From a virus (lineage: Duplodnaviria > Heunggongvirae > Uroviricota > Caudoviricetes): DNA of 43,509 bases. The stretch's first letter is position 1, and each line of letters opens with the position of its first letter. Below, in pieces: positions 14,448-26,271 of this stretch. Made by a program: the position numbers and the translations under genes. The notes under the pieces were generated by a model. That model searched no databases and was not told where the DNA came from. It was given only the letters and a program-made list of their open reading frames with translations. The DNA lies in IMG/VR virus record IMGVR_UViG_2703718810_000003; one strand, given 5' to 3'.

Positions 14448-16109
14448 TTATATGAAAAAAACCGCATATTCTTTCTTTTTCGGCCCCGGATTCAGGGACA
14501 TCAGGGATACCGCATTGAAGAGCGCCATCAGCGGGTCAATTTTCCCCCGTCCGCTGGCCTGTTTGGTAATAAGGATGGCGTTACCTTTAGGCTCCACCCG
14601 GGCATTGCCAACGCACCAAGCCATCAGTGGCTGACCACCATGCACCAGCACTCCCTCAGCCAGTTTGCGCTCGGTGGTTTTGATGGCCCCGCCCAGCTTC
14701 CAGCCCTGGCTTATCCCCACAACAATTCCGTCGGGGATCCCGGCTTCCGCCAGTGAATCCAGAATCTGCCCCACACCTGACGGGTCAATACCGATATGAT
14801 CCAGTAACTCAGCCTCATGGATACGACGCACATACTCCGCCACTTCCGCCGTGTCATCCCCGACCCGACGGACAATCGTCATGTCTCCACAGGCCACAAA
14901 ATCCTGAAACCGGGATGCCTCACTCTTCCGTCTGAGCACCGCGGTTTCATGCGCCCAGGCATGGCCCCAGCCCAGCCATTCGCGGGTTTCCCTGTCACGG
15001 CCAATCACGTACATTCCCAGCAGATCATCCAGGCCCCCGCCGTCAATCCCCACCGTCACCACATCAGCGCGCTGCAGGATATCGTCCAGGCTGACGCGCC
15101 TGCCCTGCTGCTCCCAGAAATCCGCGCCCGCCCAGCGGTCAGAACGCAGGGCAAGACCGATTTCCACATTGGCGTGTTTTGACATGAAGCCACGAAATGC
15201 TTCCTCACCAGCCTCCCGGGCTTTACGGTACTCCCGGTACAGAAAAGCCTCATCCACCGAATAACCGAGATTCGGATTGACCATGGCGAGGTTTTCCATC
15301 AGCAGGTGAGCCCCGCTTTCCACCATTTCAGGAGGGTGTTCAAATATCACCGGCAGAAAGTGCGGATCATGAATTTTGCCGTCACGGACATCCCGGGCGT
15401 ACTGCAGTTTCTGTCTGAACACTCCGGCTGGCGGCTCATTCGACTGGGTGGTCGTATACACCACAAACCCTTCCGGGCGGGAGGCAAGGCCGCCTATGGC
15501 TTCACGTAACATGTCCTCCGCCTTGCACTGCTTGCCAAATAACCACAGTTCATCAATCAGCGTCCCCACGGACTTGATACCGGACACCGTATTCGGATCG
15601 GCAGCCACCACCTTAAGGGTGGTGTCCGTCACCCGATGGGTGATGGTCCGGATATGTGTCTGCACCTGACAGAGGTCATCCAGATCATCGTCCCGTCGTA
15701 CCATATCCCTGGCAGGGTTGAAGGCGTTAGCCGCCACCTCCACGGTCGGGGCCAGAATGGTGTAGCCCGCCGCCTGCCGCCAGTTCAGTAACAGCGCCGT
15801 CATCATGATCCCCGCGGCCAGCGTGGACTTGCTGTTTTTTTTCGGTATCAGAATGAACACTTCCTTTATATGGCGTACACCGGTCTGCGCATCGTAGGAG
15901 CCAAACAGGGCCGCCACCAGGTCAAACACCCACGCTGCACAGGACTCCCCGAACGTCGGGCTGCCCGGTGCATCCACAATCCGCAGTTGTTTAAAAATCG
16001 CCAGGGCATGTGCGGCCTGCTCCGGGTAAATCGGAGACGGAATAATCGACAGCCCCTTTTTCAGACGCTCTGCCCAGTCCGGGCAGGCCGTGCTCCACAC
16101 TGGTATCAT
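14448..16109 (-). CDS. Terminase large subunit
   Basis: 553 aa; N-terminal ATPase-like region (ILIPKKNSKST) and C-terminal RNase-H-like nuclease region (VTVGIDGGGLDDLLG); follows small subunit. Confidence 0.75.
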   Translation of the reverse strand: MIPVWSTACPDWAERLKKGLSIIPSPIYPEQAAHALAIFKQLRIVDAPGSPTFGESCAAWVFDLVAALFGSYDAQTGVRHIKEVFILIPKKNSKSTLAAGIMMTALLLNWRQAAGYTILAPTVEVAANAFNPARDMVRRDDDLDDLCQVQTHIRTITHRVTDTTLKVVAADPNTVSGIKSVGTLIDELWLFGKQCKAEDMLREAIGGLASRPEGFVVYTTTQSNEPPAGVFRQKLQYARDVRDGKIHDPHFLPVIFEHPPEMVESGAHLLMENLAMVNPNLGYSVDEAFLYREYRKAREAGEEAFRGFMSKHANVEIGLALRSDRWAGADFWEQQGRRVSLDDILQRADVVTVGIDGGGLDDLLGMYVIGRDRETREWLGWGHAWAHETAVLRRKSEASRFQDFVACGDMTIVRRVGDDTAEVAEYVRRIHEAELLDHIGIDPSGVGQILDSLAEAGIPDGIVVGISQGWKLGGAIKTTERKLAEGVLVHGGQPLMAWCVGNARVEPKGNAILITKQASGRGKIDPLMALFNAVSLMSLNPGPKKKEYAVFFI

Positions 16110-16669
16110 CCGTTGCCCTCATTATCATTATTCACCACCAGTCGGGGTGGTGGTGGCACCGCAAAACGGTTAGCCGCTTTTTTCGCCGCGTCACCTTTTG
16201 CCGATTTTTTACCGGCATCCCCTTTTTTGTGGTGCGTGAACTGCGCCAGCTTATAAGCCGCATCCAGCGCCAGCCTGGGGTCGGTATTAATGTTCTCCAC
16301 CAGAAGACGCCCCATCGCTTTCACAGGATCGGGAAGACCGTCCTCCATATACTCAATACCAGGAGATATCACCACGGGCGGTGGCATCTCCGGATTTGTT
16401 TCGTCCGGCTGTGGTATTGCAGCCGCCTCACGGCGACGGGGTTTATCCTCCTGCTCTGATTTTTTCTGCCGGTAAACAGGAACCTCATCCACCTCCACCG
16501 TCTCGCACTGTTTACGGGCTATAAACGCAAGCACCTCCGGATCTTTTGCCAGCTGCGAGCCTTTAACCCTGGCTGTCTTCGCCGAATAACCGGCGGCAAT
16601 GGCTGACGCTGTTTTGTTTTTCCCGGACATGAGCGCCAGCGCAAATTTTCGTTTTTGCGTTGTCAGCAC
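16106..16669 (-). CDS. Terminase small subunit (GTG start)
   Basis: 187 aa, N-terminal HTH-like MSGKNKTASAIAAGYSAKTARVKGSQL; GTG start preceded by GGGAGGAGG. Confidence 0.7.
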   Translation of the reverse strand: MLTTQKRKFALALMSGKNKTASAIAAGYSAKTARVKGSQLAKDPEVLAFIARKQCETVEVDEVPVYRQKKSEQEDKPRRREAAAIPQPDETNPEMPPPVVISPGIEYMEDGLPDPVKAMGRLLVENINTDPRLALDAAYKLAQFTHHKKGDAGKKSAKGDAAKKAANRFAVPPPPRLVVNNDNEGNG

Positions 16670-16958: not shown

Positions 16959-17324
16959 TTACAGTCCGATGATGTCGTCCGCTCTGCCACTACCTCCGGA
17001 CACCTCCGGCAGTGTCGGGTCCGGCATACCACTCGCCGCTTCACGAACAGACTTTTGTCGATGGCATTCGGTACAGAGCGTCCAGAGATTCGTCTCCTCA
17101 TTACCACCACCGAATTGAAGTGCAATTCGGTGATCGAGTTCACTGTCACAGACGTCAACCACACGACCACAGAGACAGCACTGCCCGGCGTCCCTGAGCC
17201 AGATATGACGCTTGAGGGAAACACGTGCACTGCCACTGACACGACGCTGTTCACCCTTCAGAATATTCACCCGTCGGGTATTCAGTGTTTTGATTCTGCT
17301 CTGGAGTGTACGAAGCTGAGCCAT
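16959..17324 (-). CDS. HNH endonuclease (packaging-associated)
   Basis: 121 aa with CxxC...DHRIALQFGG.NEE.NLWTLCTECHRQK HNH motif; positioned just upstream of terminase genes. Confidence 0.8.
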   Translation of the reverse strand: MAQLRTLQSRIKTLNTRRVNILKGEQRRVSGSARVSLKRHIWLRDAGQCCLCGRVVDVCDSELDHRIALQFGGGNEETNLWTLCTECHRQKSVREAASGMPDPTLPEVSGGSGRADDIIGL

Positions 17325-17365
17325 GTAAAATCCCCGTCATATGGCAATCAGTAAAGGAAATAAAT

Positions 17366-17566
17366 ATGTCATCGAAAAACCGGACCCGCAGAACCACAAC
17401 CCGCAATATCCGTTTCCCCAATCACATGATTGAACAGATCAACATCGCCCTTGAGCATAAAGGGTCCGGTAACTTTTCAGCGTGGGTTATTGAAGCCTGC
17501 AGGAGAAGGCTGGCAACAGATGCAACGCATCTGCGCCCGGCCAGCATGACAAATAACGAGAAATGA
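17366..17566 (+). CDS. Small ribbon-helix-helix-like protein (YlcI/YnfO-like)
   Basis: MSSKNRTRRTTTRNIRFPNHMIEQINIALEHKGSGNFSAWVIEACRRRL; ATG at 17366 with AAAGGA RBS; opposite strand to neighbours. Confidence 0.6.
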   Translation: MSSKNRTRRTTTRNIRFPNHMIEQINIALEHKGSGNFSAWVIEACRRRLATDATHLRPASMTNNEK

Positions 17567-17697: not shown

Positions 17698-18030
17698 TCA
17701 GGGTGCAGAAGGACTAAAGATAAACGTTTTCTTCACGCCTTTACGCGGCCTGTCCTTCTCAAATCGCCATTTTGCCATCGCTTTTACAACCTGCTCATCA
17801 AACAGATGGTGCGGCTCTGAACGGATAAACTCAATTCGGGTGACAGTACCATCAGCACCAATATCAAACTTCACATCAACCCGTCCCTTTATATAATTTG
17901 CCGCTGCATAGGCCGGATATTGTGGTAATGCCTTAACCAACTGTCGGGGCATATCTGTTTTATGTTGCGTACAGCCCATAACCAGAGAAGACAACAAAAT
18001 AATTAACGGAAGATTTCTTTTCATTTTCAT
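17698..18030 (-). CDS. Lipoprotein with TonB C-terminal domain
   Basis: Signal peptide plus lipobox (LPLIILLSSLVMGC); PQYPAYAAANYIKGRVDVKFDIGADGTVTRIEFIRSEPHHLFDEQVVKAMAKWRF aligns with E. coli TonB C-terminus (PQYPARAQALRIEGQVKVKFDV...MRRWRYEP) as I recall it. Confidence 0.7.
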   Translation of the reverse strand: MKMKRNLPLIILLSSLVMGCTQHKTDMPRQLVKALPQYPAYAAANYIKGRVDVKFDIGADGTVTRIEFIRSEPHHLFDEQVVKAMAKWRFEKDRPRKGVKKTFIFSPSAP

Positions 18031-18369
18031 TCCCGGCACAGATAAGAATAAGTCTTATTCTAACAATGCCACCCTGTCGGTCATCAATCCTCTGCTTAAT
18101 GGCAACGACAATTATCCGACTTAAATCACAAATCAGACACATGACATAACAGAGCTTGCGAGGTAACACATCGTCCGGTTTCTTCCACCATCGCACCGGA
18201 CCAGCGACCATGAGGGGACAACGCCGCGCTCCGTTAACGCGGTAAACCCCGGTGTGTATCGTTTTTGATTATCCCCGCACACTCGCGCAGAGGAGTCTCC
18301 CTGTCGGGCTGCGGTCTCTGTTAATACGGGAATACGGCGACAATACCGCGCCATGGATAATAAGGTCGC

Positions 18370-18594
18370 TCAACACACTGGCTGTAATGCAGCGGATACC
18401 ATGCGGCATTTAGCGGCATTCATCGTACACTCAACGGTTAGCTCTTCATTCGTGGCATTCACCTGAAAGGTCCGGGAGTGTAATTGCGTACATTTACCAC
18501 TGAACGAACCTTCAACAAGAACACGACCACGCTGCAAAATACGGAACGGAATTGTTCCCTGAAAAGGTTCTACGGTTACCCGTAATTTCTTCAT
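18370..18594 (-). CDS. Hypothetical Cys-containing 74-aa protein translationally coupled to Rz
   Basis: ATG overlaps Rz stop (ATGA); no signal peptide; no family recognised. Confidence 0.35.
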
Positions 18595-19085
18595 GTATCC
18601 TCCGGATAATAAAAAGCCAGCTTAGTGCACTGAGTGCGTATATATTCCTGCGCCCCTTCCAGCTGCTTCTGCATTGTCATCAACCGTTCTCTGAGGTTGA
18701 AATAATCCCGTTCAGCGGTGTCTGCCAGTCGGGGGCCGGTTGCATTATCCACGCCGGAGGTGCCGGTGGCTTCACGCACGGTACCGGGGCAGGAGGCGTT
18801 GAGCCGCAGGCGCTTACGACCAGCGGCAACATCAGCACGCAGAGTTTCATTTTCAGCTCTCGCATCGGCTAATTCCCTTGAGTATCTGGCATCAAGCGCA
18901 GCAACATCACGCTGGCGCTGCTGCATGTCAGTAATGGTTGCGTTTGCCAGCTCCAGCTCTCTGGCTTTTTTATCGCGCTGCGCTTTGTAGGTGATGGCGT
19001 TATCACGGTAATGATTCAGCCCCAGACTAAGCGCACCACAGGCCACCAGCAAGGCAATAATGACCACACACAGAACGCGGTTCAT
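18591..19085 (-). CDS. Rz: Spanin inner-membrane subunit Rz
   Basis: N-terminal TM helix, long coiled-coil periplasmic domain, follows endolysin; Rz1 embedded in +1 frame. Confidence 0.8.
18680..18865 (-). CDS. Rz1: Spanin outer-membrane lipoprotein Rz1 (embedded in Rz)
   Basis: Signal peptide with lipobox LVVSAC then Pro-rich segment ([16 protein letters not shown]), fully inside Rz in a different frame. Confidence 0.75.
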
Positions 19086-19086
19086 T

Positions 19087-19185
19087 TCACCACCAGCGTA
19101 TCTGACCGATGAAATAACCGGAGGCCATAATCACAAACACCAGCCAGATAAGGATGAACTTCCAGGTGGATAATTTTTCAGCCAT
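19087..19185 (-). CDS. 32-aa single-TM peptide immediately upstream of Rz
   Basis: [40 protein letters not shown]; stop TGA 1 nt before Rz ATG. Below ORF-track size cutoff. Confidence 0.35.
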
Positions 19186-19260
19186 CACTCGAATCTCCCG
19201 AATCAGTTTGCTAAAATTAAACACACTTTCTCCTTTGACTTTTCCGGAGTCAGGAAACAC

Positions 19261-19298
19261 AAAACCCCGCTTGCTGCCAACAAACGGGGTTTTTACTT
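19261..19298. terminator. Bidirectional hairpin with flanking A/T runs between endolysin and Rz block
   Basis: AAAACCCCG-(loop)-CGGGGTTTTT; T-run on both strands after the stem. Confidence 0.4.
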
Positions 19299-19382
19299 TT
19301 ATTCACTAGGTTTTGCCAGTTCGCAGGATTTCGTGTTATCCGTCCGCGTTGGTCAACGTCATTTTTCAGCAAAATATTCTGC

Positions 19383-19916
19383 TTATCTGTCGATTCCCCA
19401 GCACGCCAGCGCGCTCTCCTGGTCACGACGGGATATCTGACCGTAGCAATTATTTGAGCGAATACGGCAGTCTCTGCCACCGTCCTTAATCCACCAGCGA
19501 ATCGCCTCACACGCTCCCCTGCGATCGCCTGCATTAATTCGTTTATAAAACGTCGACGGGAAACACTTACCTGGGCCAATGTTATACGGGCAGAATGACG
19601 CAATACCCGCTTTCTGGGGTTCGGTCAGTGGCACTTTGATGTTTTTCTCCACCCATGCCAGCGCCTTATCACGTTCAATGGCGTTAACCTGGTCGCATTT
19701 TTCCTTCGTCAACTTCATGCCAGGAATAACAGGCTTACCATCCACCCGGGTGGCTCCACGGCAGATGGTCCAGATACCCGCGCCATCACGGTATGCCGTG
19801 GTGTGGTTGCCTTCTTTTTCATCCAGAAACTGGTCGAGGATTTCAGGCGCAGACGCCCCTGCACCAATCAGCGCCAGAACGGCAGCCGATAAACCATAGC
19901 GGAGTTTCCTGCTCAT
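19383..19916 (-). CDS. R: SAR endolysin (T4-lysozyme-like muramidase)
   Basis: N-terminal signal-anchor-release segment (LSAAVLALIGAGASA) followed by E...D...T catalytic region (EKEGNHTTAYRDGAGIWTICRG). Confidence 0.8.
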   Translation of the reverse strand: MSRKLRYGLSAAVLALIGAGASAPEILDQFLDEKEGNHTTAYRDGAGIWTICRGATRVDGKPVIPGMKLTKEKCDQVNAIERDKALAWVEKNIKVPLTEPQKAGIASFCPYNIGPGKCFPSTFYKRINAGDRRGACEAIRWWIKDGGRDCRIRSNNCYGQISRRDQESALACWGIDR

Positions 19917-19920
19917 CAGC

Positions 19921-20136
19921 TTACTCTCCCCGCGCCGCCTTACGCCGGTCTTCTTTAATTTTGAAATACAGGTTCGTCAGATATGTCAGCAGCCCAAACA
20001 GCAGACTCCCCAGCACGCCTATTGCCGCCCACTGAGACGGGGAAACCCTGTCCAGCAACTGCAGGATCCAGTAGCCCGTTCCCACCGCTGACGTGGTGTA
20101 TGACAAACCTGTTGTGATTTTTTCCATCTGGTACAT
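19921..20136 (-). CDS. S: Holin (phage-21-type, dual start Met1/Met4)
   Basis: 71 aa, two TM segments, MYQMEK dual-start, C-terminal [13 protein letters not shown] resembling S21 as I recall it; directly upstream of endolysin. Confidence 0.8.
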
Positions 20137-20210
20137 ACCCCGTCTCCCGCAATCCGGAAGCTCACAACAACAAGTGGGGCATCAGCTCACACCGACACCC
20201 CTGCGCATGG

Positions 20211-20480
20211 TTACATCATCATTTCGCCGTCAGGCTGAGGCTCTTCACTACCGTCAGGCTGAGACCCGACGCCATCTGAAACAGCACTGTCATCCGCAAT
20301 GCCTTCCGGCTCCGGAACAGTCGGTGCGCCCAGCAGTTCATCCAGAATGGCATCCACTTCTGCATCAAGACGCGCCTCAAGATTCTGGCGGAGTTTTTGT
20401 TTCAGTGCGCTCAGGACTTCTTCAGAGCGCAGGACTTCCTTCACTGCCTCAGCAGTTACCAGCGATTTTATTTCTGACAT
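20211..20480 (-). CDS. Hypothetical acidic protein (89 aa)
   Basis: ATG at 20480; MSEIKSLVTAEAVKEVLRSEEVLSALKQKLRQNLEARLDAEVD...; coiled-coil then acidic tail. Confidence 0.45.
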   Translation of the reverse strand: MSEIKSLVTAEAVKEVLRSEEVLSALKQKLRQNLEARLDAEVDAILDELLGAPTVPEPEGIADDSAVSDGVGSQPDGSEEPQPDGEMMM

Positions 20481-20517: not shown

Positions 20518-20700
20518 CTACGGAATGAGCGGATCTTCGGGTTTGCTTCCGGCTGACTGACTGGCGCTGATTTTCTCAGCGGCCCTTTTATCAATCTGCC
20601 TGCGCCAGAAATCGCGCACGACTCTGTACCCACCCGAAAGAAGATACAGCACGCATACCACCGTACAGAAGTACAGCATCAGTTGATGAACAAATGTCAT
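20518..20700 (-). CDS. Hypothetical small membrane protein (60 aa)
   Basis: One hydrophobic helix (LMLYFCTVVCVLYLL); weak RBS. Confidence 0.35.
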   Translation of the reverse strand: MTFVHQLMLYFCTVVCVLYLLSGGYRVVRDFWRRQIDKRAAEKISASQSAGSKPEDPLIP

Positions 20701-20846: not shown

Positions 20847-22835
20847 TTATGATGAAGAGGTTGCCTGGTTAATGCTTACCATGATACTGCGGAACATGAC
20901 AGGATAAGATTTTCCCTGATTTGCGCTGATACCTGTCACTGTGATGTTATCCACCGTAAAGGCAGAAGTGACCGGACCTTCTTTCAGTGCAAAACCTGTT
21001 TTCTCTTCTCCGTCAAGTACCGGAATAACCTGGTGATTGCCGCCTCCTTTATATTTAAAGACAAGCGTGTGCCAGTTGTTATTAACCGCACCGAATGACT
21101 CAATTTTTGTATTAGGCTGTGTTTTACCGTGATACATGACATCCAGGTTACTGGCTTTTGTCTGAGTGAAAAAGGAGGCCATCATATTGCTGCTGTTGCC
21201 TTCCTGAGTCCACCCGGAAACTGGCAGGTAAACACCAAAGAGGTATTTGTCATCTGCAACCTGGGTACCATCCGGCAACCTGAATTCAAGTTTTATTTCA
21301 CCGCCATTTTCATACAGAGCACGGGCATCTTCAGCTGATACTCCTGCTGACAGCATCCACGGTCCCTGTTTGCCCTCATGCTGCTTAATCTTCAGCACCT
21401 GTCTGCTTTCATCATTAACAAACTCGGCGACACCGTCCCGGGCATTCCAGTGCTGGGCTGCCCAGTTACCACCGAGGCTGTCTTTCTCAACAGCTGAATT
21501 ATACTCAACAACCGTTCTTCTCTGAGGTGCATCCTGTGATAACGCAGCATCCTCCACAGGTGACGGGAAATTTCCGGATGTAACGTTTTCCCGTTCATCT
21601 CCTGCAACTACCGTTTCTGACCGCCCGGTGATAAACGCCGGGTATTTGCCTGCGTGGGTCAGAATTGCGGTTGCAAGACGATCTGAAATAATTCCACGCC
21701 GCGCCCATGAACCGAAATGGCTTGCCCTGTCACCTGACGTCCAGCTGACAGAACTGTCTCGCCACTTCGAACCGGAGTAGCCAATACCTTCAATATCAGG
21801 ATCTTCTGCCGGATTATTGGTCTGCACATTTACCCCGCTTCCATCAACCATGAAAGGGACAAAGTGAATATTCTGCGCTGCCTTATTTTTATATCCACCG
21901 TATACAGTTTCATAAGACGCAGCATATTTTTCTTTCCAGTAATGCGTCGTATCGCCACAAACCCACGGAACGCTCAGTGCCGAGCCCCCCACGCACTGCC
22001 CTGACATATCAGCGATGTCAGCACGGAATTTCTGTACCATGCCAGTAAAAAGAGCATTATGACTCTGGCTTCCTGAAGCCAGATCACTCTCCCCCTGCAT
22101 CCAGATTACCGCCAGCAGGATATTTCCGGGATTTTTAGCCAGCGCGACTTTCGTGCGACTTAACAGATCCTGGTACAGCGGCTTATCAGCTCCCCACAAT
22201 GCAGAATCAGGGCTTGCCCCGGAAGAGGCGTTAAATGTTCCCTCATTACCTGTAGTCACTCCCGAGCCTCCACGACAGCATGGAACCAGAAGAATGCCCG
22301 CATTCGCCGGTATAAACGGTAACAGTTTTTTGGCAATATGCAGTCCCTGACCCACACAACCATACTGACCTTTATTGAGGTCTGCCCGGGGGTGATTTTT
22401 TTCACTCATATCCATCACATCATGAAGACAATGATCTGCCGGAATAACATCGTTATAGGTGCAGGGAACGCCTCGCGGCGTAACGGTACGTCGACGGGCA
22501 AGCTGCTTAATTCTCGGATCAGGGCGATCATAAGAATCAGGTAACGGTACTCCCTCTCCAAAAGACATACCATTTGACTGACCCGCCAGCGCGACAACAT
22601 AATAATATTCAGGCTCACCGGTCTTGCTGATAGCCGTCTCCCCGTCACCCGATGGTTTAACCAGCACCGGCGTGGTGACATCACCTTCCGCCGCAATAGC
22701 CTGCATCAGGGTATAAGGCGTGATGGCGACAGGGCTGCCAAATGGCTGCCACCCCTCCTTCAGTTTTTGTGTCAGTCGTTCAGCAAGGTCTGACGGCGAT
22801 GCCGCCCTGACCACATCGTAGTGTTTAAATGCCAT
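20847..22835 (-). CDS. NanS-p-like sialate O-acetylesterase (N-terminal DUF1737-like region plus SASA/SGNH-like hydrolase)
   Basis: 662 aa beginning MAFKHYDVVRAASPSDLAERL; VVALAGQSNGMSFG esterase motif; occupies the position of the ~645-aa ORF downstream of stx in Stx phages. Confidence 0.7.
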   Translation of the reverse strand: MAFKHYDVVRAASPSDLAERLTQKLKEGWQPFGSPVAITPYTLMQAIAAEGDVTTPVLVKPSGDGETAISKTGEPEYYYVVALAGQSNGMSFGEGVPLPDSYDRPDPRIKQLARRRTVTPRGVPCTYNDVIPADHCLHDVMDMSEKNHPRADLNKGQYGCVGQGLHIAKKLLPFIPANAGILLVPCCRGGSGVTTGNEGTFNASSGASPDSALWGADKPLYQDLLSRTKVALAKNPGNILLAVIWMQGESDLASGSQSHNALFTGMVQKFRADIADMSGQCVGGSALSVPWVCGDTTHYWKEKYAASYETVYGGYKNKAAQNIHFVPFMVDGSGVNVQTNNPAEDPDIEGIGYSGSKWRDSSVSWTSGDRASHFGSWARRGIISDRLATAILTHAGKYPAFITGRSETVVAGDERENVTSGNFPSPVEDAALSQDAPQRRTVVEYNSAVEKDSLGGNWAAQHWNARDGVAEFVNDESRQVLKIKQHEGKQGPWMLSAGVSAEDARALYENGGEIKLEFRLPDGTQVADDKYLFGVYLPVSGWTQEGNSSNMMASFFTQTKASNLDVMYHGKTQPNTKIESFGAVNNNWHTLVFKYKGGGNHQVIPVLDGEEKTGFALKEGPVTSAFTVDNITVTGISANQGKSYPVMFRSIMVSINQATSSS

Positions 22836-23053: not shown

Positions 23054-23058
23054 GCATG

Positions 23059-23084
23059 TAAAAAGGCTCCTGCAATGAGGAGCC
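23059..23084 (-). terminator. Minus-strand terminator downstream of structured element 1
   Basis: GGCTCCT-loop-AGGAGCC followed by U-run on minus strand; convergent with plus-strand terminator at 23028. Confidence 0.45.
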
Positions 23085-23112
23085 TGGATGTATGCCTAAT
23101 CTCTGTATACTA

Positions 23113-23226
23113 CATGGTGCCGGGTGCCTCCCGGTGAGTTCAGTATCAGCACCTGAACCCGCACAGAAAGGATAGAGTAGAAACACCTGCGCTGATATGC
23201 CCCTCCGCTCAGGGGGATTCACCATG
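23113..23226 (-). ncRNA. Structured RNA-like element, copy 1 (strand assignment tentative)
   Basis: CATGGTG...CACCATG closing helix enclosing hairpins CCGGGTGCCTCCCGG and CCCCTCCGCNCAGGGGG; three paralogous copies in window. Confidence 0.45.
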
Positions 23227-23321
23227 CAGAACTTTTTTAACAACTCCCCGTCAGACAGGCAAGCATCAACCATCTGAACTGTGAGGGATTTAACATTTAA
23301 CAACACAGCCTTTTCCCGCAC

Positions 23322-23346
23322 AAAAAAAGCCCCTCAGGAGAGGGGC
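23322..23346 (-). terminator. Minus-strand terminator downstream of structured element 2
   Basis: GCCCCTC-AGGA-GAGGGGC followed by 7 U on minus strand. Confidence 0.55.
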
Positions 23347-23373
23347 CGATCGCTGTGTATACACCATAAGCAG

Positions 23374-23485
23374 CATAGTGCCGGGTGCCTCCCGGTAGAT
23401 TCAGCCTGACTACTGAATCTGCGTATTGTGACCATCGCTATGGAGACCATGTCAGACGCCCCTCCGCACAGGGGGATTCACTATG
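23374..23485 (-). ncRNA. Structured RNA-like element, copy 2
   Basis: Closing helix here is CATAGTG...CACTATG: both strands changed compensatorily relative to copies 1 and 3. Confidence 0.45.
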
Positions 23486-23723
23486 CTGGCTCGTTTTTAC
23501 AAGACTTCCATCAATCAGACAATAGTCCATCAACCGAATTGTGAGTCATTTAACATTTCCATGAGGTAACTGATATCCAGCTAACAATCATCTGCAATGG
23601 ACGAAGCCAGTTCCAGAACTTGCCCACACTACAGCAACAACCACTGCATTCCAAAAATGGAATTTTGGGAGATTACTTCTGCAAACAGCTACCGATAAAT
23701 ATATCCCTGATTGCCTGCGCAGT

Positions 23724-23837
23724 CTGTTCAAAACGCCCGGTATCCAGCTCAACGCCTATAGCACGACGCCCCAGCGCCATCGCTGCTTTAACTGCCGAAC
23801 CCTACCCCATGAAGAAATCTGCAACCAGGCCACCCGG
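23724..23837 (-). pseudogene. Internal fragment of a second DNA methyltransferase gene (paralogous to 25255..25368), with in-frame stop
   Basis: ~114 bp near-identical to the 3' region of the intact methylase; translation PGGLVADFFMG*GSAVKAAMALGRRAIGVELDTGRFEQ. Confidence 0.7.
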
Positions 23838-23880
23838 CAGAAGGGAGACTACAGCCCGCAATTCGAAAAAGGCCGCGCAG

Positions 23881-23910
23881 TTGCGCAGAGTGATTACTAT
23901 GGGGTATTAT
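23881..23910 (+). promoter_or_regulatory. Sigma70-like promoter (TTGCGC-N18-TATTAT) of plus-strand unit 2
   Basis: Paralogous to 22949..22978. Confidence 0.45.
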
Positions 23911-23916
23911 TCGCCA

Positions 23917-23984
23917 GCTGAAATATTACTTCACGTTTTATTGTTTATTCCTTGCCGCCCGCGTCTCCCAGCGCGGGCTTTTTT
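23917..23984 (+). ncRNA. Candidate ~70-nt small RNA (plus-strand unit 2)
   Basis: Same U-rich body as unit 1; terminator stem sequence entirely different (GCCCGCG/CGCGGGC) but structure retained. Confidence 0.4.
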
Positions 23985-23990
23985 GTCCAT

Positions 23991-24014
23991 AAGAAAGCCC
24001 CTCCAGAGAGGGGC
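23991..24014 (-). terminator. Minus-strand hairpin downstream of structured element 3
   Basis: GCCCCTC-CAGA-GAGGGGC followed by UUUCUU on minus strand. Confidence 0.4.
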
Positions 24015-24042
24015 TGAAGCCGCATTTCTGTATCACCATGAA

Positions 24043-24167
24043 CATGGTGCCGGGTGCCTCCCGGTGAGTTCAGCCCGGTGACACTAAACCCGCGTATTCT
24101 CGCTTACGATCATCAAAGAGATCATACCGTTCACCAGTCGCCCCTCCGCACAGGGGGATTCACCATG
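24043..24167 (-). ncRNA. Structured RNA-like element, copy 3
   Basis: Same conserved 5' and 3' blocks as copy 1 with a different central insert. Confidence 0.45.
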
Positions 24168-24303
24168 CGAAATTTTTTTAACAAATGCCCAGTCTGACAG
24201 GCAACTGTCAACTTACTGAATTGTGAGGAATTTAACACTTCACAGCACAATATCTTTCCAGCACCCCAAAATCATCTGGACAGGAGAAAATCTTCTCCCC
24301 CAG

Positions 24304-25010: not shown

Positions 25011-25087
25011 TGGACCGCCATCGAGGACTCGAACCCCGCGCAGCCAGCTCCGAAGGCTGGCGCTCTATCCCGATGAGCTAATGGCGA
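25011..25087 (-). tRNA. tRNA-Arg (anticodon UCG by my reading of the loop CUUCGGA)
   Basis: Cloverleaf foldable by hand: 7-bp acceptor (U1-G72 wobble), D-arm GCTC/GAGC with GG, anticodon stem CCAGC/GCTGG, T-arm CGGGG-TTCGAGT-CCTCG, encoded CCA. Confidence 0.8.
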
Positions 25088-25096
25088 TATGTGATA

Positions 25097-25172
25097 TGGT
25101 GGCCCTTGCTGGATTTGAACCAGCGACCTGGCGATTATGAGTCGCTCGCTCTCACCACTGAGCTAAAGGGCC
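25097..25172 (-). tRNA. tRNA with CAU anticodon (Ile2-lysidine type like ileX/ileZ, or Met)
   Basis: GGCCCTTTAGCTCAGTGGTGAGAGCGAGCGACTCATAATCGCC...TTCAAATCCAGCAAGGGCCACCA; near-identical to my recollection of E. coli ileX. Confidence 0.85.
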
Positions 25173-25212: not shown

Positions 25213-26271
25213 TCATCCGTTCTGGCTGGCTAAATCCTGAACTTCCCTGACCGTCTGCTCAAAACGTTCAGTCTCCAGCTCAACGCCTGTAGCACGACGC
25301 CCCAACACCATCGCTGCTTTGACTGTCGAACCCGACCCCATGAAGAAATCTGCAACCAGGTCACCCGGACGACTGCTCGCACTGATTATCTGCTGCAGCA
25401 TTTCTGCCGGTTTTTCGCACGGATGTTTCCCGGGATAGTACTGCACCGGTTTATGCGTCCACACATCGGTGTACGGCACCCGCACCGTCACACCGAAATA
25501 CCGCCGCAGATGCTTATATTCACTCTGCAGTTCCGTATACTGCCGGTTCAGTTCACTGTATGTGCTGACCAGTTGGTGATGTGGCTTTTCCAGTTCTCCG
25601 CGCTGATGCTTCTCTTCTGCCACCCGGGCATACAGCGCCTGTAATTTCAGATAATCGCTTTCGTCCGGTAACTGCCACTGGCTGGCACTGAACCAGTGCG
25701 ACACCATGTTTTTCTTTCCTGTGGCATCCACTATCTGTTTTGCCGTTATCCCCAGGGCAGCACGCGCATCACGAAAGTAAGAAATCAGCGGGGCCATCAC
25801 ATGCTGTTTCAGTGCCCTGCCCTTCGCCTCATACCCGGCATCTTTCGGGCGATACGGCCCCTGATAATGTTCCGCGAACAGAATGCGCTCTGTGGCGGGG
25901 AAATACGCCCTCAGGCTTTCCTTGTTGCACCCGTTCCAGCGTCCGGACGGCTTTGCCCAGATAATATGGTTCAGCACACTGAAGTGTTCACGCATCATGA
26001 TTTCGATATCAGATGCCAGGCGATGGCCACAGAACAGGTAAAGACTTCCGGCAGGTTTCAGCACCCGCCAGAACTGCGCAAGACACTGGTCCAGCCACTT
26101 CAGGTAATCATCGTCGCCCTTCCACTGGTTATCCCAGCCCTCAGGCTTCACTTTAAAGTACGGCGGGTCCGTGACTATCAGATCAACAGAATTTTCGGGT
26201 AACGACCGGATAAATTCCAGGCAGTCAGCGTTGATTAACTCACAACTGGATATTTTTACAGTGTTAAGCAT
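25213..26271 (-). CDS. DNA methyltransferase (N6-adenine / N4-cytosine family, beta-class motif order)
   Basis: 352 aa; DPPY motif near N-terminus (LIVTDPPYF) and FFMGSGST near C-terminus. Confidence 0.8.
   Translation of the reverse strand: MLNTVKISSCELINADCLEFIRSLPENSVDLIVTDPPYFKVKPEGWDNQWKGDDDYLKWLDQCLAQFWRVLKPAGSLYLFCGHRLASDIEIMMREHFSVLNHIIWAKPSGRWNGCNKESLRAYFPATERILFAEHYQGPYRPKDAGYEAKGRALKQHVMAPLISYFRDARAALGITAKQIVDATGKKNMVSHWFSASQWQLPDESDYLKLQALYARVAEEKHQRGELEKPHHQLVSTYSELNRQYTELQSEYKHLRRYFGVTVRVPYTDVWTHKPVQYYPGKHPCEKPAEMLQQIISASSRPGDLVADFFMGSGSTVKAAMVLGRRATGVELETERFEQTVREVQDLASQNG

Follow-up and report, generated by a model that had tools for sequence, protein, structure and literature searches.

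Two putative accessory cassettes flank the Rz/Rz1 spanin genes in the late operon of an Escherichia coli lambdoid prophage

Background

What are two small open reading frames (ORFs) and a strong hairpin doing around the spanin genes of a lambdoid lysis cassette? The question is raised by the block at 18370-19298 of the Caudoviricetes record IMGVR_UViG_2703718810_000003, a stretch of 43,509 nucleotides (nt), referred to here as the window, which carries on its minus strand the Q-dependent late operon of an Escherichia coli lambdoid prophage resembling the Shiga toxin (Stx) phages. An original prediction, made from the sequence alone, had placed around the Rz/Rz1 genes of this operon a peptide of 32 amino acids (aa) with a single transmembrane (TM) segment, a 74-aa ORF and a hairpin, and had suggested that the peptides modulate lysis and that the hairpin partly insulates Rz/Rz1 from transcription of the holin and endolysin genes, S and R. 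All three features were found again at these positions and on the minus strand when the sequence was checked.

The answer that we favour, and hold to be probable with some room for doubt, is that two unrelated facultative cassettes flank the Rz/Rz1 spanin genes within a Q-antiterminated lambdoid late operon. Cassette 1 (19087-19298), between R and Rz, would be made up, in this order, of a terminator, a leader that occludes the Shine-Dalgarno (SD) sequence, a GTG start and the gene of a 45-aa inner-membrane protein, which we call orf45; cassette 2 (18370-18594), downstream of Rz, would hold the 74-aa gene, orf74.

Profile matches place Q (PF06323), holin, lysozyme, Rz and Rz1 on one strand. The 1.1-kb block around Rz is 100% identical to a segment of the chromosome of E. 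coli SCU-106 and 91-95% identical to the corresponding block of Stx1a, Stx2a and Stx2c converting phages and of phage H-19B, and at least 80% of it is found in 1127 of 5426 complete E. coli genomes.

Results and discussion

orf45, a conserved gene for a small, predicted membrane protein

The 32-aa ORF extends from an ATG at 19185 to a stop codon at 19087, and its frame remains open upstream of this ATG. A GTG at 19224, in the same frame, has the motif AGGAG (19234-19230) 5 nt upstream. The NCBI Prokaryotic Genome Annotation Pipeline (PGAP) calls a 138-nt coding sequence for orf45 in near-identical prophages (WP_192825475, WP_000459345), homologues align from residue 2 onwards without indels or stop codons, and the start codon is GTG in 46 and TTG in two of 50 unique copies, and never ATG. 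The conserved gene product is most likely this 45-aa form, as PHROG and PGAP also have it, rather than the 32-aa one; the original prediction was right about the single TM segment and about the end of the ORF 1 nt before the Rz ATG, but its start has to be moved to the GTG at 19224. A second product of 32 aa may be made from the ATG at 19185; this internal ATG (codon 14) never varies, 49 of the 50 unique copies have GGGAG 9 nt before it, and one Serratia copy starts there.

The orf45 protein is under strong purifying selection, the ratio of non-synonymous to synonymous substitution rates (dN/dS) among nine diverged copies being 0.05-0.25 in the orf45 frame, whereas the two other frames give about 0.3-9. 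Lack of conservation had been named in the original prediction among the grounds for its refutation; both small ORFs (for orf74, see below) proved to be conserved protein-coding genes with frame-specific purifying selection. Homologues of orf45 occur in Escherichia, Salmonella, Citrobacter, Edwardsiella, Yersinia, Serratia, Sodalis, Izhakiella and Trabulsiella, and in the phages H-19B, TL-2011c, SPN3UB, SEN34 and Pseudomonas phage YMC11/02/R656; cassette 1 is present in Stx1, Stx2a and Stx2c converting phages.

The protein (mean Kyte-Doolittle hydropathy 2.51) has a TM segment at residues 23-40, an N-terminal tail with a net charge of +3 and a five-residue C-terminal tail, QIRWW, features from which a topology with the N-terminus in and the C-terminus out (N-in, C-out) is predicted. 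The AlphaFold (AF2) model consists of two helices (residues 4-17 and 20-44) with a mean predicted local distance difference test score (pLDDT) of 84.7; a cytoplasmic amphipathic helix is predicted, and the C-terminal GQIRWW is invariant.

These properties do not assign orf45 to the known lysis proteins. It has no holin match in Pfam or NCBIfam, its C-terminal tail is limited to QIRWW and lacks a charged hydrophilic domain, and the lysis cassette already has a PF04971 holin besides it. Neither orf45 nor orf74 has a PF03245 or PF06085 match, a lipobox or a periplasmic domain, as looked for in spanins. No family was found for either protein in Pfam, NCBIfam or PADLOC, the PHROG matches are with families of unknown function only, and no description of either was found in the literature searched by topic, by peptide sequence or by accession; both are hypothetical in every source and neither matches a characterised family.

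A mobile hairpin and a leader predicted to occlude the SD

The hairpin had been described as bidirectional, with T-runs, and as lying between the endolysin gene and the block, and this description was borne out by a terminator scan, by covariation and by the tails of the family members. In the window it has a 15-pair stem (six G-C pairs) with an A-run upstream and the tail GTGTTTCC, or U-tract UUUUGUGUUU, downstream. It is the strongest terminator-like site of the 3.4 kb scanned (eight sites, against 2.8 +/- 1.6 in shuffles), and its fold has a z-score of -3.1, with 0 of 200 shuffles folding as well. Across 19 diverse cassettes, 96.3% of the cells of the stem are paired, compensatory double changes are seen in 7 of 13 pairs, and the covariation score is 0.281, compared with 0.139 in shuffles (0 of 500 reach the observed value) and with 0.016-0.085 after sliding of the pairing. 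In all 19 members both strands have T-rich tails, and both fold stably; the sense-strand RNA is the more stable one in 16 of the 19, the antisense fold having -10 to -20 kcal/mol. By its sequence, the hairpin is a putative bidirectional terminator, under selection at least on the sense strand.

Wherever a gene of the orf45 family occurs, the hairpin lies 30-40 nt upstream of its start, and this includes sites away from lysis genes. Hairpin and orf45 are found together after tail genes similar to lambda L/K (locus L155 and Pseudomonas phage YMC11/02/R656), between baseplate genes (a Yersinia locus, L109, and Salmonella phage SEN34) and in Sodalis and Izhakiella prophages, and the tail-operon copy L155 has an additional terminator downstream of orf45. 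Cassette 1, with its putative terminator, predicted SD occlusion, non-ATG start and ORF, moves as one unit between late-operon junctions; phages of Enterobacterales and Pseudomonas have it at endolysin|i-spanin, tail K|I or baseplate junctions. A sole role of the hairpin as the endolysin's own terminator was rejected, as it accompanies orf45 in tail and baseplate operons. The idea that the hairpin insulates Rz/Rz1 from S-R transcription survives in part: the hairpin is a real, selected structure with the features of a terminator, but it travels with orf45 into operons that have no Rz. Since the Q antiterminator lies upstream, any insulation would be limited to polymerase free of Q modification, and would not extend to normal late transcription.

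Between the hairpin and the GTG, a small stem-loop is predicted to pair with the SD of orf45 (Table 1). An SD-occluding hairpin, with a stem of differing sequence (CCUUG/CAAGG, CGUUA/UAACG and others), is the minimum free energy (MFE) fold in at least 10 of the 19 diverse members. No sense-strand sigma-70-like promoter was detected in the window between the hairpin and the orf45 start or just upstream, nor any terminator-like site between the orf45 stop and the Rz start. Rfam, run over the whole window at the gathering threshold and over 18200-19500 at E <= 10 on both strands, gave nothing credible at the hairpin, the best of the non-credible matches being a rimP leader (E = 0.22) and ohsC (E = 2.7). 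A conserved stem in the 5' coding region of orf45 was also considered and found unsupported, as the predicted partners differ between two sequence groups.

The interval between the endolysin gene and Rz

The interval between the R stop and the Rz start (19086-19382 in the window) is hypervariable among relatives (loci L001-L086), with length classes of 0 (R overlapping Rz), 300, 339, 429, 441, about 490, 645, about 990, 1200 and about 1900 nt (the longest, 1901). Roughly 88 nt directly after the R stop are conserved across all classes. In the longer ones there are antirepressor or methylase-like genes, or else small single-TM ORFs, up to four in tandem; the ORF families of this slot (phrog_6632, phrog_4906, phrog_1115/4493/3246 and phrog_12997) are all of unknown function. 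Antirepressor-type slots have, at the same place as the hairpin of cassette 1, another and unrelated terminator-like hairpin (GGCACC-GTAAT-GGTGCC, then TTTG).

The stop codon of orf45 (TGA) is separated by one base from the Rz ATG at 19085 (TGGTGGTGAAATG), and the same 1-nt distance to the ATG of an i-spanin is found in about 75 of 90 informative loci, a count that is inflated by closely related prophages and is not phylogenetically independent. The i-spanin partners are diverged PF03245 Rz proteins, a DUF2514-family protein (in E. fergusonii, with a GH19 endolysin and a different holin as neighbours) and a third type. A stop within a few nt of the Rz start, or an overlap with it, is also seen in the other small TM ORF families of the slot. 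The last codons of orf45, UGG UGG UGA, contain GGUGG, which resembles an SD and lies 4 nt before the Rz AUG; this makes translational coupling plausible. The RWW ending is primarily a feature of the protein, because it is kept where no spanin follows. The tight junction would mean either that orf45 is functionally linked to the i-spanin or that whatever is inserted at this hot spot has to restore the coupling of Rz.

The original prediction had described the two ORFs as coupled to Rz, and by the layout of the junctions on both sides both are set for translational coupling with it. Both ORFs are dispensable: in one relative (locus L072) R overlaps Rz with nothing between them, and from the existence of such relatives it follows that neither ORF is needed for lysis.

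orf74, a separate cassette downstream of Rz

As had been described, the 74-aa ORF begins on the Rz stop codon (ATGA; ACATGAAG), and it corresponds to the hypothetical protein WP_000736383.1. A GGAGG SD lies 4 nt upstream of its ATG, inside the 3' end of Rz. The last ten or so codons of Rz are an extension that comes from the orf74 cassette (18591-18625) and carries this SD, so that Rz has 164 aa in the window against 153-155 aa in many relatives; in the Sakai prophages Sp9 and Sp10, the cassette is deleted and Rz ends earlier. Homologues of orf74, with identities down to 53-64%, are found in E. coli and Salmonella prophages downstream of Rz, where they overlap the Rz stop or lie up to about 440 nt away, and the phages that have orf74 after Rz have differing terminases, of both the terS/TerL and the Nu1/GpA types. 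Among divergent pairs (near-identical ones being uninformative), the dN/dS values are 0.27-0.51 for the orf74 frame and about 0.7-2.2 for the others.

The AF2 model of orf74 is a six-strand beta-sandwich (pLDDT 89.8, predicted template modelling score 0.75), and neither a TM segment nor a signal peptide was found in the protein. A profile search of 1.84 billion representatives returned only 45 relatives, a few of them proteins of 225-280 aa and of unknown function in which the orf74 fold is a domain; one relative (P0100) has a sub-threshold match to a phage tail-tip protein. Comparison with Pfam, NCBIfam, PHROG and folds in the PDB gave no significant match to a characterised family, and a GTDB scan with the orf74 alignment returned nothing. 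Of 80 loci anchored on orf45 with enough downstream sequence, only two have orf74. The two genes are unrelated cassettes that are independently distributed, and the candidate view of orf45 and orf74 as a functional pair was rejected for that reason.

Two further observations concern the surroundings of orf74. A 125-aa database protein (P0002) consists of the N-terminus of a NanS-p esterase (DUF1737) fused directly to orf74, which indicates a deletion variant that lacks the whole holin-endolysin-Rz block. Just downstream of orf74, a candidate RNA at positions 18241-18282 of the window (plus strand) matches exactly the sequence of EcOnc11 and EcOnc12, peaks of Hfq-CRAC (crosslinking and analysis of cDNA) in the prophages Sp10 and Sp9, respectively, of enterohaemorrhagic E. 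coli (EHEC) Sakai (Tree et al. 2014, Table S2). At a distance of 75-120 nt downstream of Rz, EcOnc10, EcOnc11 and EcOnc12 run antisense to the late operon; EcOnc10 (Sp12) has a peak score near-identical to those of the other two, and the mapping here covered EcOnc11 and EcOnc12. The fold of 191 nt around 18241-18282 is no better than those of shuffles.

A proposed mechanism and its weak points

In Stx phages, transcripts from PR' end early in the absence of antitermination (PMC7547250). We propose that in cassette 1 the terminator would act together with the hidden SD and the weak start to keep the orf45 peptide silent in the lysogen, and that Q-modified RNA polymerase would read through the terminator and allow low-level synthesis only; silence in the lysogen and low late expression are what the Q-dependence of the operon, taken with these attenuating features, leads us to expect. 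On this model orf45 would be a late-only, dose-limited accessory factor acting at the membrane and not a core lysis protein, and the tuning of a late envelope or lysis step would be its most plausible role. The end of orf45 would supply Rz with an SD-like sequence and with coupling by termination and reinitiation, and in cassette 2 orf74 would be co-translated with Rz through the SD in the Rz extension and the AUG/stop overlap. We count both genes among the uncharacterised accessory late-operon genes of lambdoid phages, orf45 having what looks like an unusual self-gating architecture.

Several points weigh against this proposal. Termination, read-through by Q-modified polymerase, SD occlusion, coupling, membrane insertion and an effect on lysis are all predicted from sequence. 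The occurrence of the orf45 cassette in tail and baseplate operons weakens a role specific to lysis; besides the inflation of the spanin-adjacent count given above, only three of seven informative orf45 loci adjoin a spanin among GTDB species representatives. One close pair of orf74 genes, with 18 non-synonymous and 3 synonymous changes (dN/dS of about 2), is indistinguishable from neutrality. Finally, the model alone leaves unaccounted for a run of frozen codons in orf45, from which the most serious of the alternatives starts.

Frozen codons and alternative explanations

Codons 3-12 of orf45 (19189-19218) show zero synonymous variation in the 50 unique copies, whereas codons 16-43 are free to vary and synonymous sites elsewhere in these copies are saturated (dS > 1 between groups). 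Fixed codons include AGC for Ser5, AAA for Lys6, GAT for Asp3 (48 of 48), GAG for Glu10 (49 of 49) and the rare CGA for Arg12, and the Pseudomonas copy, from a locus of 60% G+C, retains GAT TTT AGC and CGA, its Lys codon being AAG. The opposite strand of codons 3-6 reads TGCTAA[A/T/G]AT, an extended -10 motif (TGCTAAAAT) that fits TGnTAnnnT in all 50 unique copies, with a weak -35-like element, TCG(A/C)A, at 17-18 nt from it; the freeze spans both. As an observation in its own right, one of the two tRNAs encoded downstream of Q is a tRNA-Arg with anticodon TCG (the other has anticodon CAT), and tRNA-Arg(UCG) decodes CGA, the invariant rare codon 12 of orf45.

These sites suggest that cassette 1 could be a module similar to type I toxin-antitoxin systems, which we regard as unlikely. 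An antisense RNA of about 75-80 nt would start from the extended -10 motif, cover the start and SD of orf45 and end at the hairpin, silencing the hydrophobic peptide until late transcription swamps it. Conservation of the -10-like motif even in the Pseudomonas copy, a freeze that runs from this motif to the -35-like element, and a hairpin with an upstream A-run, T-rich tails on both strands and a stable antisense fold all speak for it, as do the size and hydrophobicity of the peptide, which resemble those of type I toxins and agree with the size (<60 aa) and hydrophobic membrane character by which these are recognised. In addition, an unrelated ORF (the C family) that follows the same leader has an antisense -10-like TATACT at nt 8-13 of the ORF, and there is a precedent in hokW-sokW of the Stx2 phage Sp5, which aids phage release (PMC8621323). 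Against it, Rfam has no match on either strand, the -35 element is weak, the antisense transcript is a candidate only, no toxin promoter was found on the sense strand, and the hairpin is more often the more stable as sense RNA, and most of its wobble pairs fit the sense strand. Tree et al. (2014) have their Hfq-CRAC peaks at other places, EcOnc33 (Sakai; Table S2 of that study) mapping within nanS-p and not at the hairpin; these Sakai data are uninformative on an orf45 antisense RNA, the four prophages checked, Sp6, Sp9, Sp10 and Sp15, having the antirepressor-type slot without orf45. Moreover, A/U-rich early codons and a second translation-initiation region could also freeze the sites, and two such regions, at GTG1 and ATG14, could explain most of the freeze.

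A bolder form of the same idea, which we think doubtful, makes cassette 1 a mobile self-gated toxin switch, in which the hairpin would keep unmodified polymerase out of orf45 and would also form the 3' end of the antisense RNA described above, and the two starts (45 and 32 aa) would give an effector and a regulator form of a membrane-active peptide. Made under antiterminated late transcription alone, this peptide would tune when the envelope is disrupted. Such a switch would be safe at any late-operon junction, and this would explain its spread from Pseudomonas to E. coli phages.

Equally doubtful in our view is that orf45 is a moron-type gene for lysogenic conversion or exclusion, made in the lysogen and blocking the DNA entry of incoming phages or some other envelope step, its position next to Rz being an accident of a permissive insertion site. 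The presence/absence polymorphism of cassette 1 and its several sites (R|Rz, tail K|I and baseplate) fit this, as does the fact that the R-Rz hot spot also receives antirepressor and methylase genes; and since any insert there must restore the coupling of Rz, tight junctions would arise without a functional link. However, the absence of a promoter, the upstream terminator, the occluded SD and the non-ATG start are the opposite of the classical moron layout, and PADLOC gave no match.

We give a similarly low weight to the proposal that orf45 and the other small TM ORFs abutting Rz are dedicated partners or regulators of the i-spanin, acting through the TM helix. The 1-nt gap between stop and ATG recurs with at least three i-spanin types and with different holins and endolysins, nearly every variant of the R-Rz slot ends in a small TM ORF adjacent to Rz, and the predicted N-in orientation of orf45 agrees with the topology of Rz, which is N-in, C-out. 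On the other hand, the same cassette, with its C-terminal RWW, is found in tail and baseplate operons far from spanins, some relatives have R overlapping Rz without any small ORF, and the UGGUGGUGA ending may be merely a convenient SD for the next gene.

Somewhat less probable still, the hairpin could be mainly a barrier to mRNA decay or a processing signal, which would shield the S-R message at its 3' end and the orf45-Rz message at its 5' end and thereby make the amounts of holin and endolysin differ from those of the spanins even under antitermination. It is indeed a stable intercistronic stem-loop selected on the sense strand, and the second, unrelated terminator-like hairpin of the antirepressor-type slots lies at the same place; but its travel with orf45 into other operons is left unexplained, and a decay barrier is compatible with terminator function and does not exclude it.

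That the small ORFs are chance or decaying frames and the hairpin a terminator of the endolysin gene only is very improbable: orf45 is unannotated in many records, including a 100% identical genome, and one close orf74 pair has dN/dS above 1, but this reading is already contradicted by frame-specific purifying selection on both ORFs, by the confident fold of orf74, by the conservation of orf45 from Pseudomonas phages to E. coli and by the company that the hairpin keeps with orf45 where no endolysin is near.

Genomic context

The features of the window that bear on the locus are collected in Table 1.

Table 1. Positions in the window of the block under study, its parts and the neighbouring genes
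Feature	Position	Strand	Evidence or remark
Q antiterminator	27063-27752	-	PF06323
DNA methylase	25213-26271	-	
Two tRNAs	25011-25172	-	
SASA/NanS-p esterase	20847-22835	-	
DUF1378	20518-20700	-	
DUF826	about 20211-20480	-	
Class II holin, phage 21 S type	19921..20136	-	PF04971, E = 2e-32
Endolysin (phage lysozyme), hydrophobic N-terminus, R21-like or signal-anchor-release (SAR)-like; upstream of cassette 1	19383..19916	-	PF00959, E = 3.8e-25
Block under study (Rz and Rz1 inside)	18370-19298	-	
Putative bidirectional intrinsic terminator hairpin, 5' end of cassette 1	19261..19298	-	stem 19293-19261
orf45 5' leader: UUUCCU tract and small stem-loop (GACU/AGUC) pairing with the SD AGGAG	19225..19257	-	MFE fold, predicted
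orf45, 45-aa single-pass inner-membrane protein (predicted), GTG start	19087..19224	-	phrog_6632, E = 1.9e-28
Rz i-spanin, 164 aa, intact	18591..19085	-	PF03245, E = 6.9e-49
Rz1 o-spanin lipoprotein, intact, embedded in Rz, +1 frame	18680..18865	-	PF06085, E = 2.5e-21
orf74, soluble 74-aa all-beta protein (predicted), hypothetical	18370..18594	-	phrog_2571, E = 2.7e-28; WP_000736383.1
TonB_C lipoprotein	17698-18039	-	
DUF3950 gene	17306-17566	+	
HNH	16959-17324	-	
terS	16106-16669	-	

Some of the neighbours deserve mention in their own right. The TonB_C (PF03544) lipoprotein gene has a promoter-like site upstream (18084-18057, minus strand; ATGACC-16-TAGAAT with TG) and resembles a classical moron; its PHROG label, 'Rz-like spanin' (phrog_1267), is probably a mislabel. 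Between the tRNAs and the esterase gene there is another lipoprotein moron, whose product has a C-terminal TolA domain (PF06519; 24304-24732, minus strand), and this suggests that the two lipoproteins are decoys of Tol/Ton systems, possibly against colicins or other phages. Three copies of the small RNA family STnc100 (RF02076; 121-169 bits) are found at 23054-24197 (minus strand), and a further terminator-like hairpin, GGGGTGTCGG...GATGCCCC with a weak T-tract, lies at 20176-20201 (minus strand), about 40 nt upstream of the holin start. No stx genes were found at the usual position in the window.

Significance and comparison with known systems

Stx phages carry cassette 1, and lysis timing governs toxin release there. 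In E. coli and Salmonella prophages orf45 is a conserved gene, for a predicted inner-membrane protein, that is nearly always joined to an i-spanin gene; if it alters spanin synthesis or the timing of lysis, the best-studied lysis pathway would gain a component, and if the antisense-RNA reading is true, cassette 1 would represent a portable 'late-only' expression gate of a new kind. Should both fail, the gain would be in annotation: a true start at the GTG at 19224, a gene that is often missed, and an R-Rz hot spot of shuffling membrane-protein genes.

Among the known systems, gene 15 of HK97 is reportedly a small inner-membrane superinfection-exclusion protein encoded between tail genes, and cassette 1 likewise holds a gene for a small, predicted inner-membrane protein, polymorphic in its presence and placed between late genes, as lambdoid morons do. 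Classical morons bring a promoter of their own, have their terminator on the downstream side and are expressed from the prophage; in cassette 1, by contrast, no promoter was detected, the terminator is upstream, the SD is predicted to be occluded and the start is GTG or TTG.

Dual-start holin/antiholin genes under the control of RNA structure are known from lambda, where S105/S107 has the sdi stem-loop, and from S21 (68/71). Like them, orf45 has two in-frame candidate starts and a predicted stem-loop over the first SD. Its starts are, however, 13 codons apart rather than two or three, it has a single TM segment with a five-residue periplasmic tail and no charged C-terminal domain, and it lies beside an existing S21-type holin and also outside lysis cassettes.

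Lysis cassettes also contain accessory membrane proteins, such as LysA of P2 and gp25 ('releasin') of Mu. LydB, LydC and LydD of P1 are further accessory membrane proteins of this kind (PMC9025707). With all of these orf45 shares the character of an apparently non-essential gene for a small membrane protein next to endolysin and spanin genes, but profile searches detect no similarity between them, and sizes and numbers of TM segments differ.

The resemblance to hokW-sokW of the Stx2 phage Sp5 (PMC8621323) lies in a hydrophobic peptide of about 30-50 aa, in a 5' RNA structure restricting translation, which is predicted here, and in a candidate cis-antisense RNA, which in cassette 1 would end at the leader terminator; unlike hokW-sokW, orf45 has no sequence or Rfam relationship to such systems, and a toxin promoter is not seen. 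Finally, the hairpin resembles tR' downstream of PR' (PMC7547250) in having a GC-rich stem followed by a U-tract, at which transcription would be expected to stop unless Q allows read-through; unlike tR', the terminator of cassette 1 is linked to the gene that follows it, moves with that gene from one late operon to another, and has terminator features on both strands.

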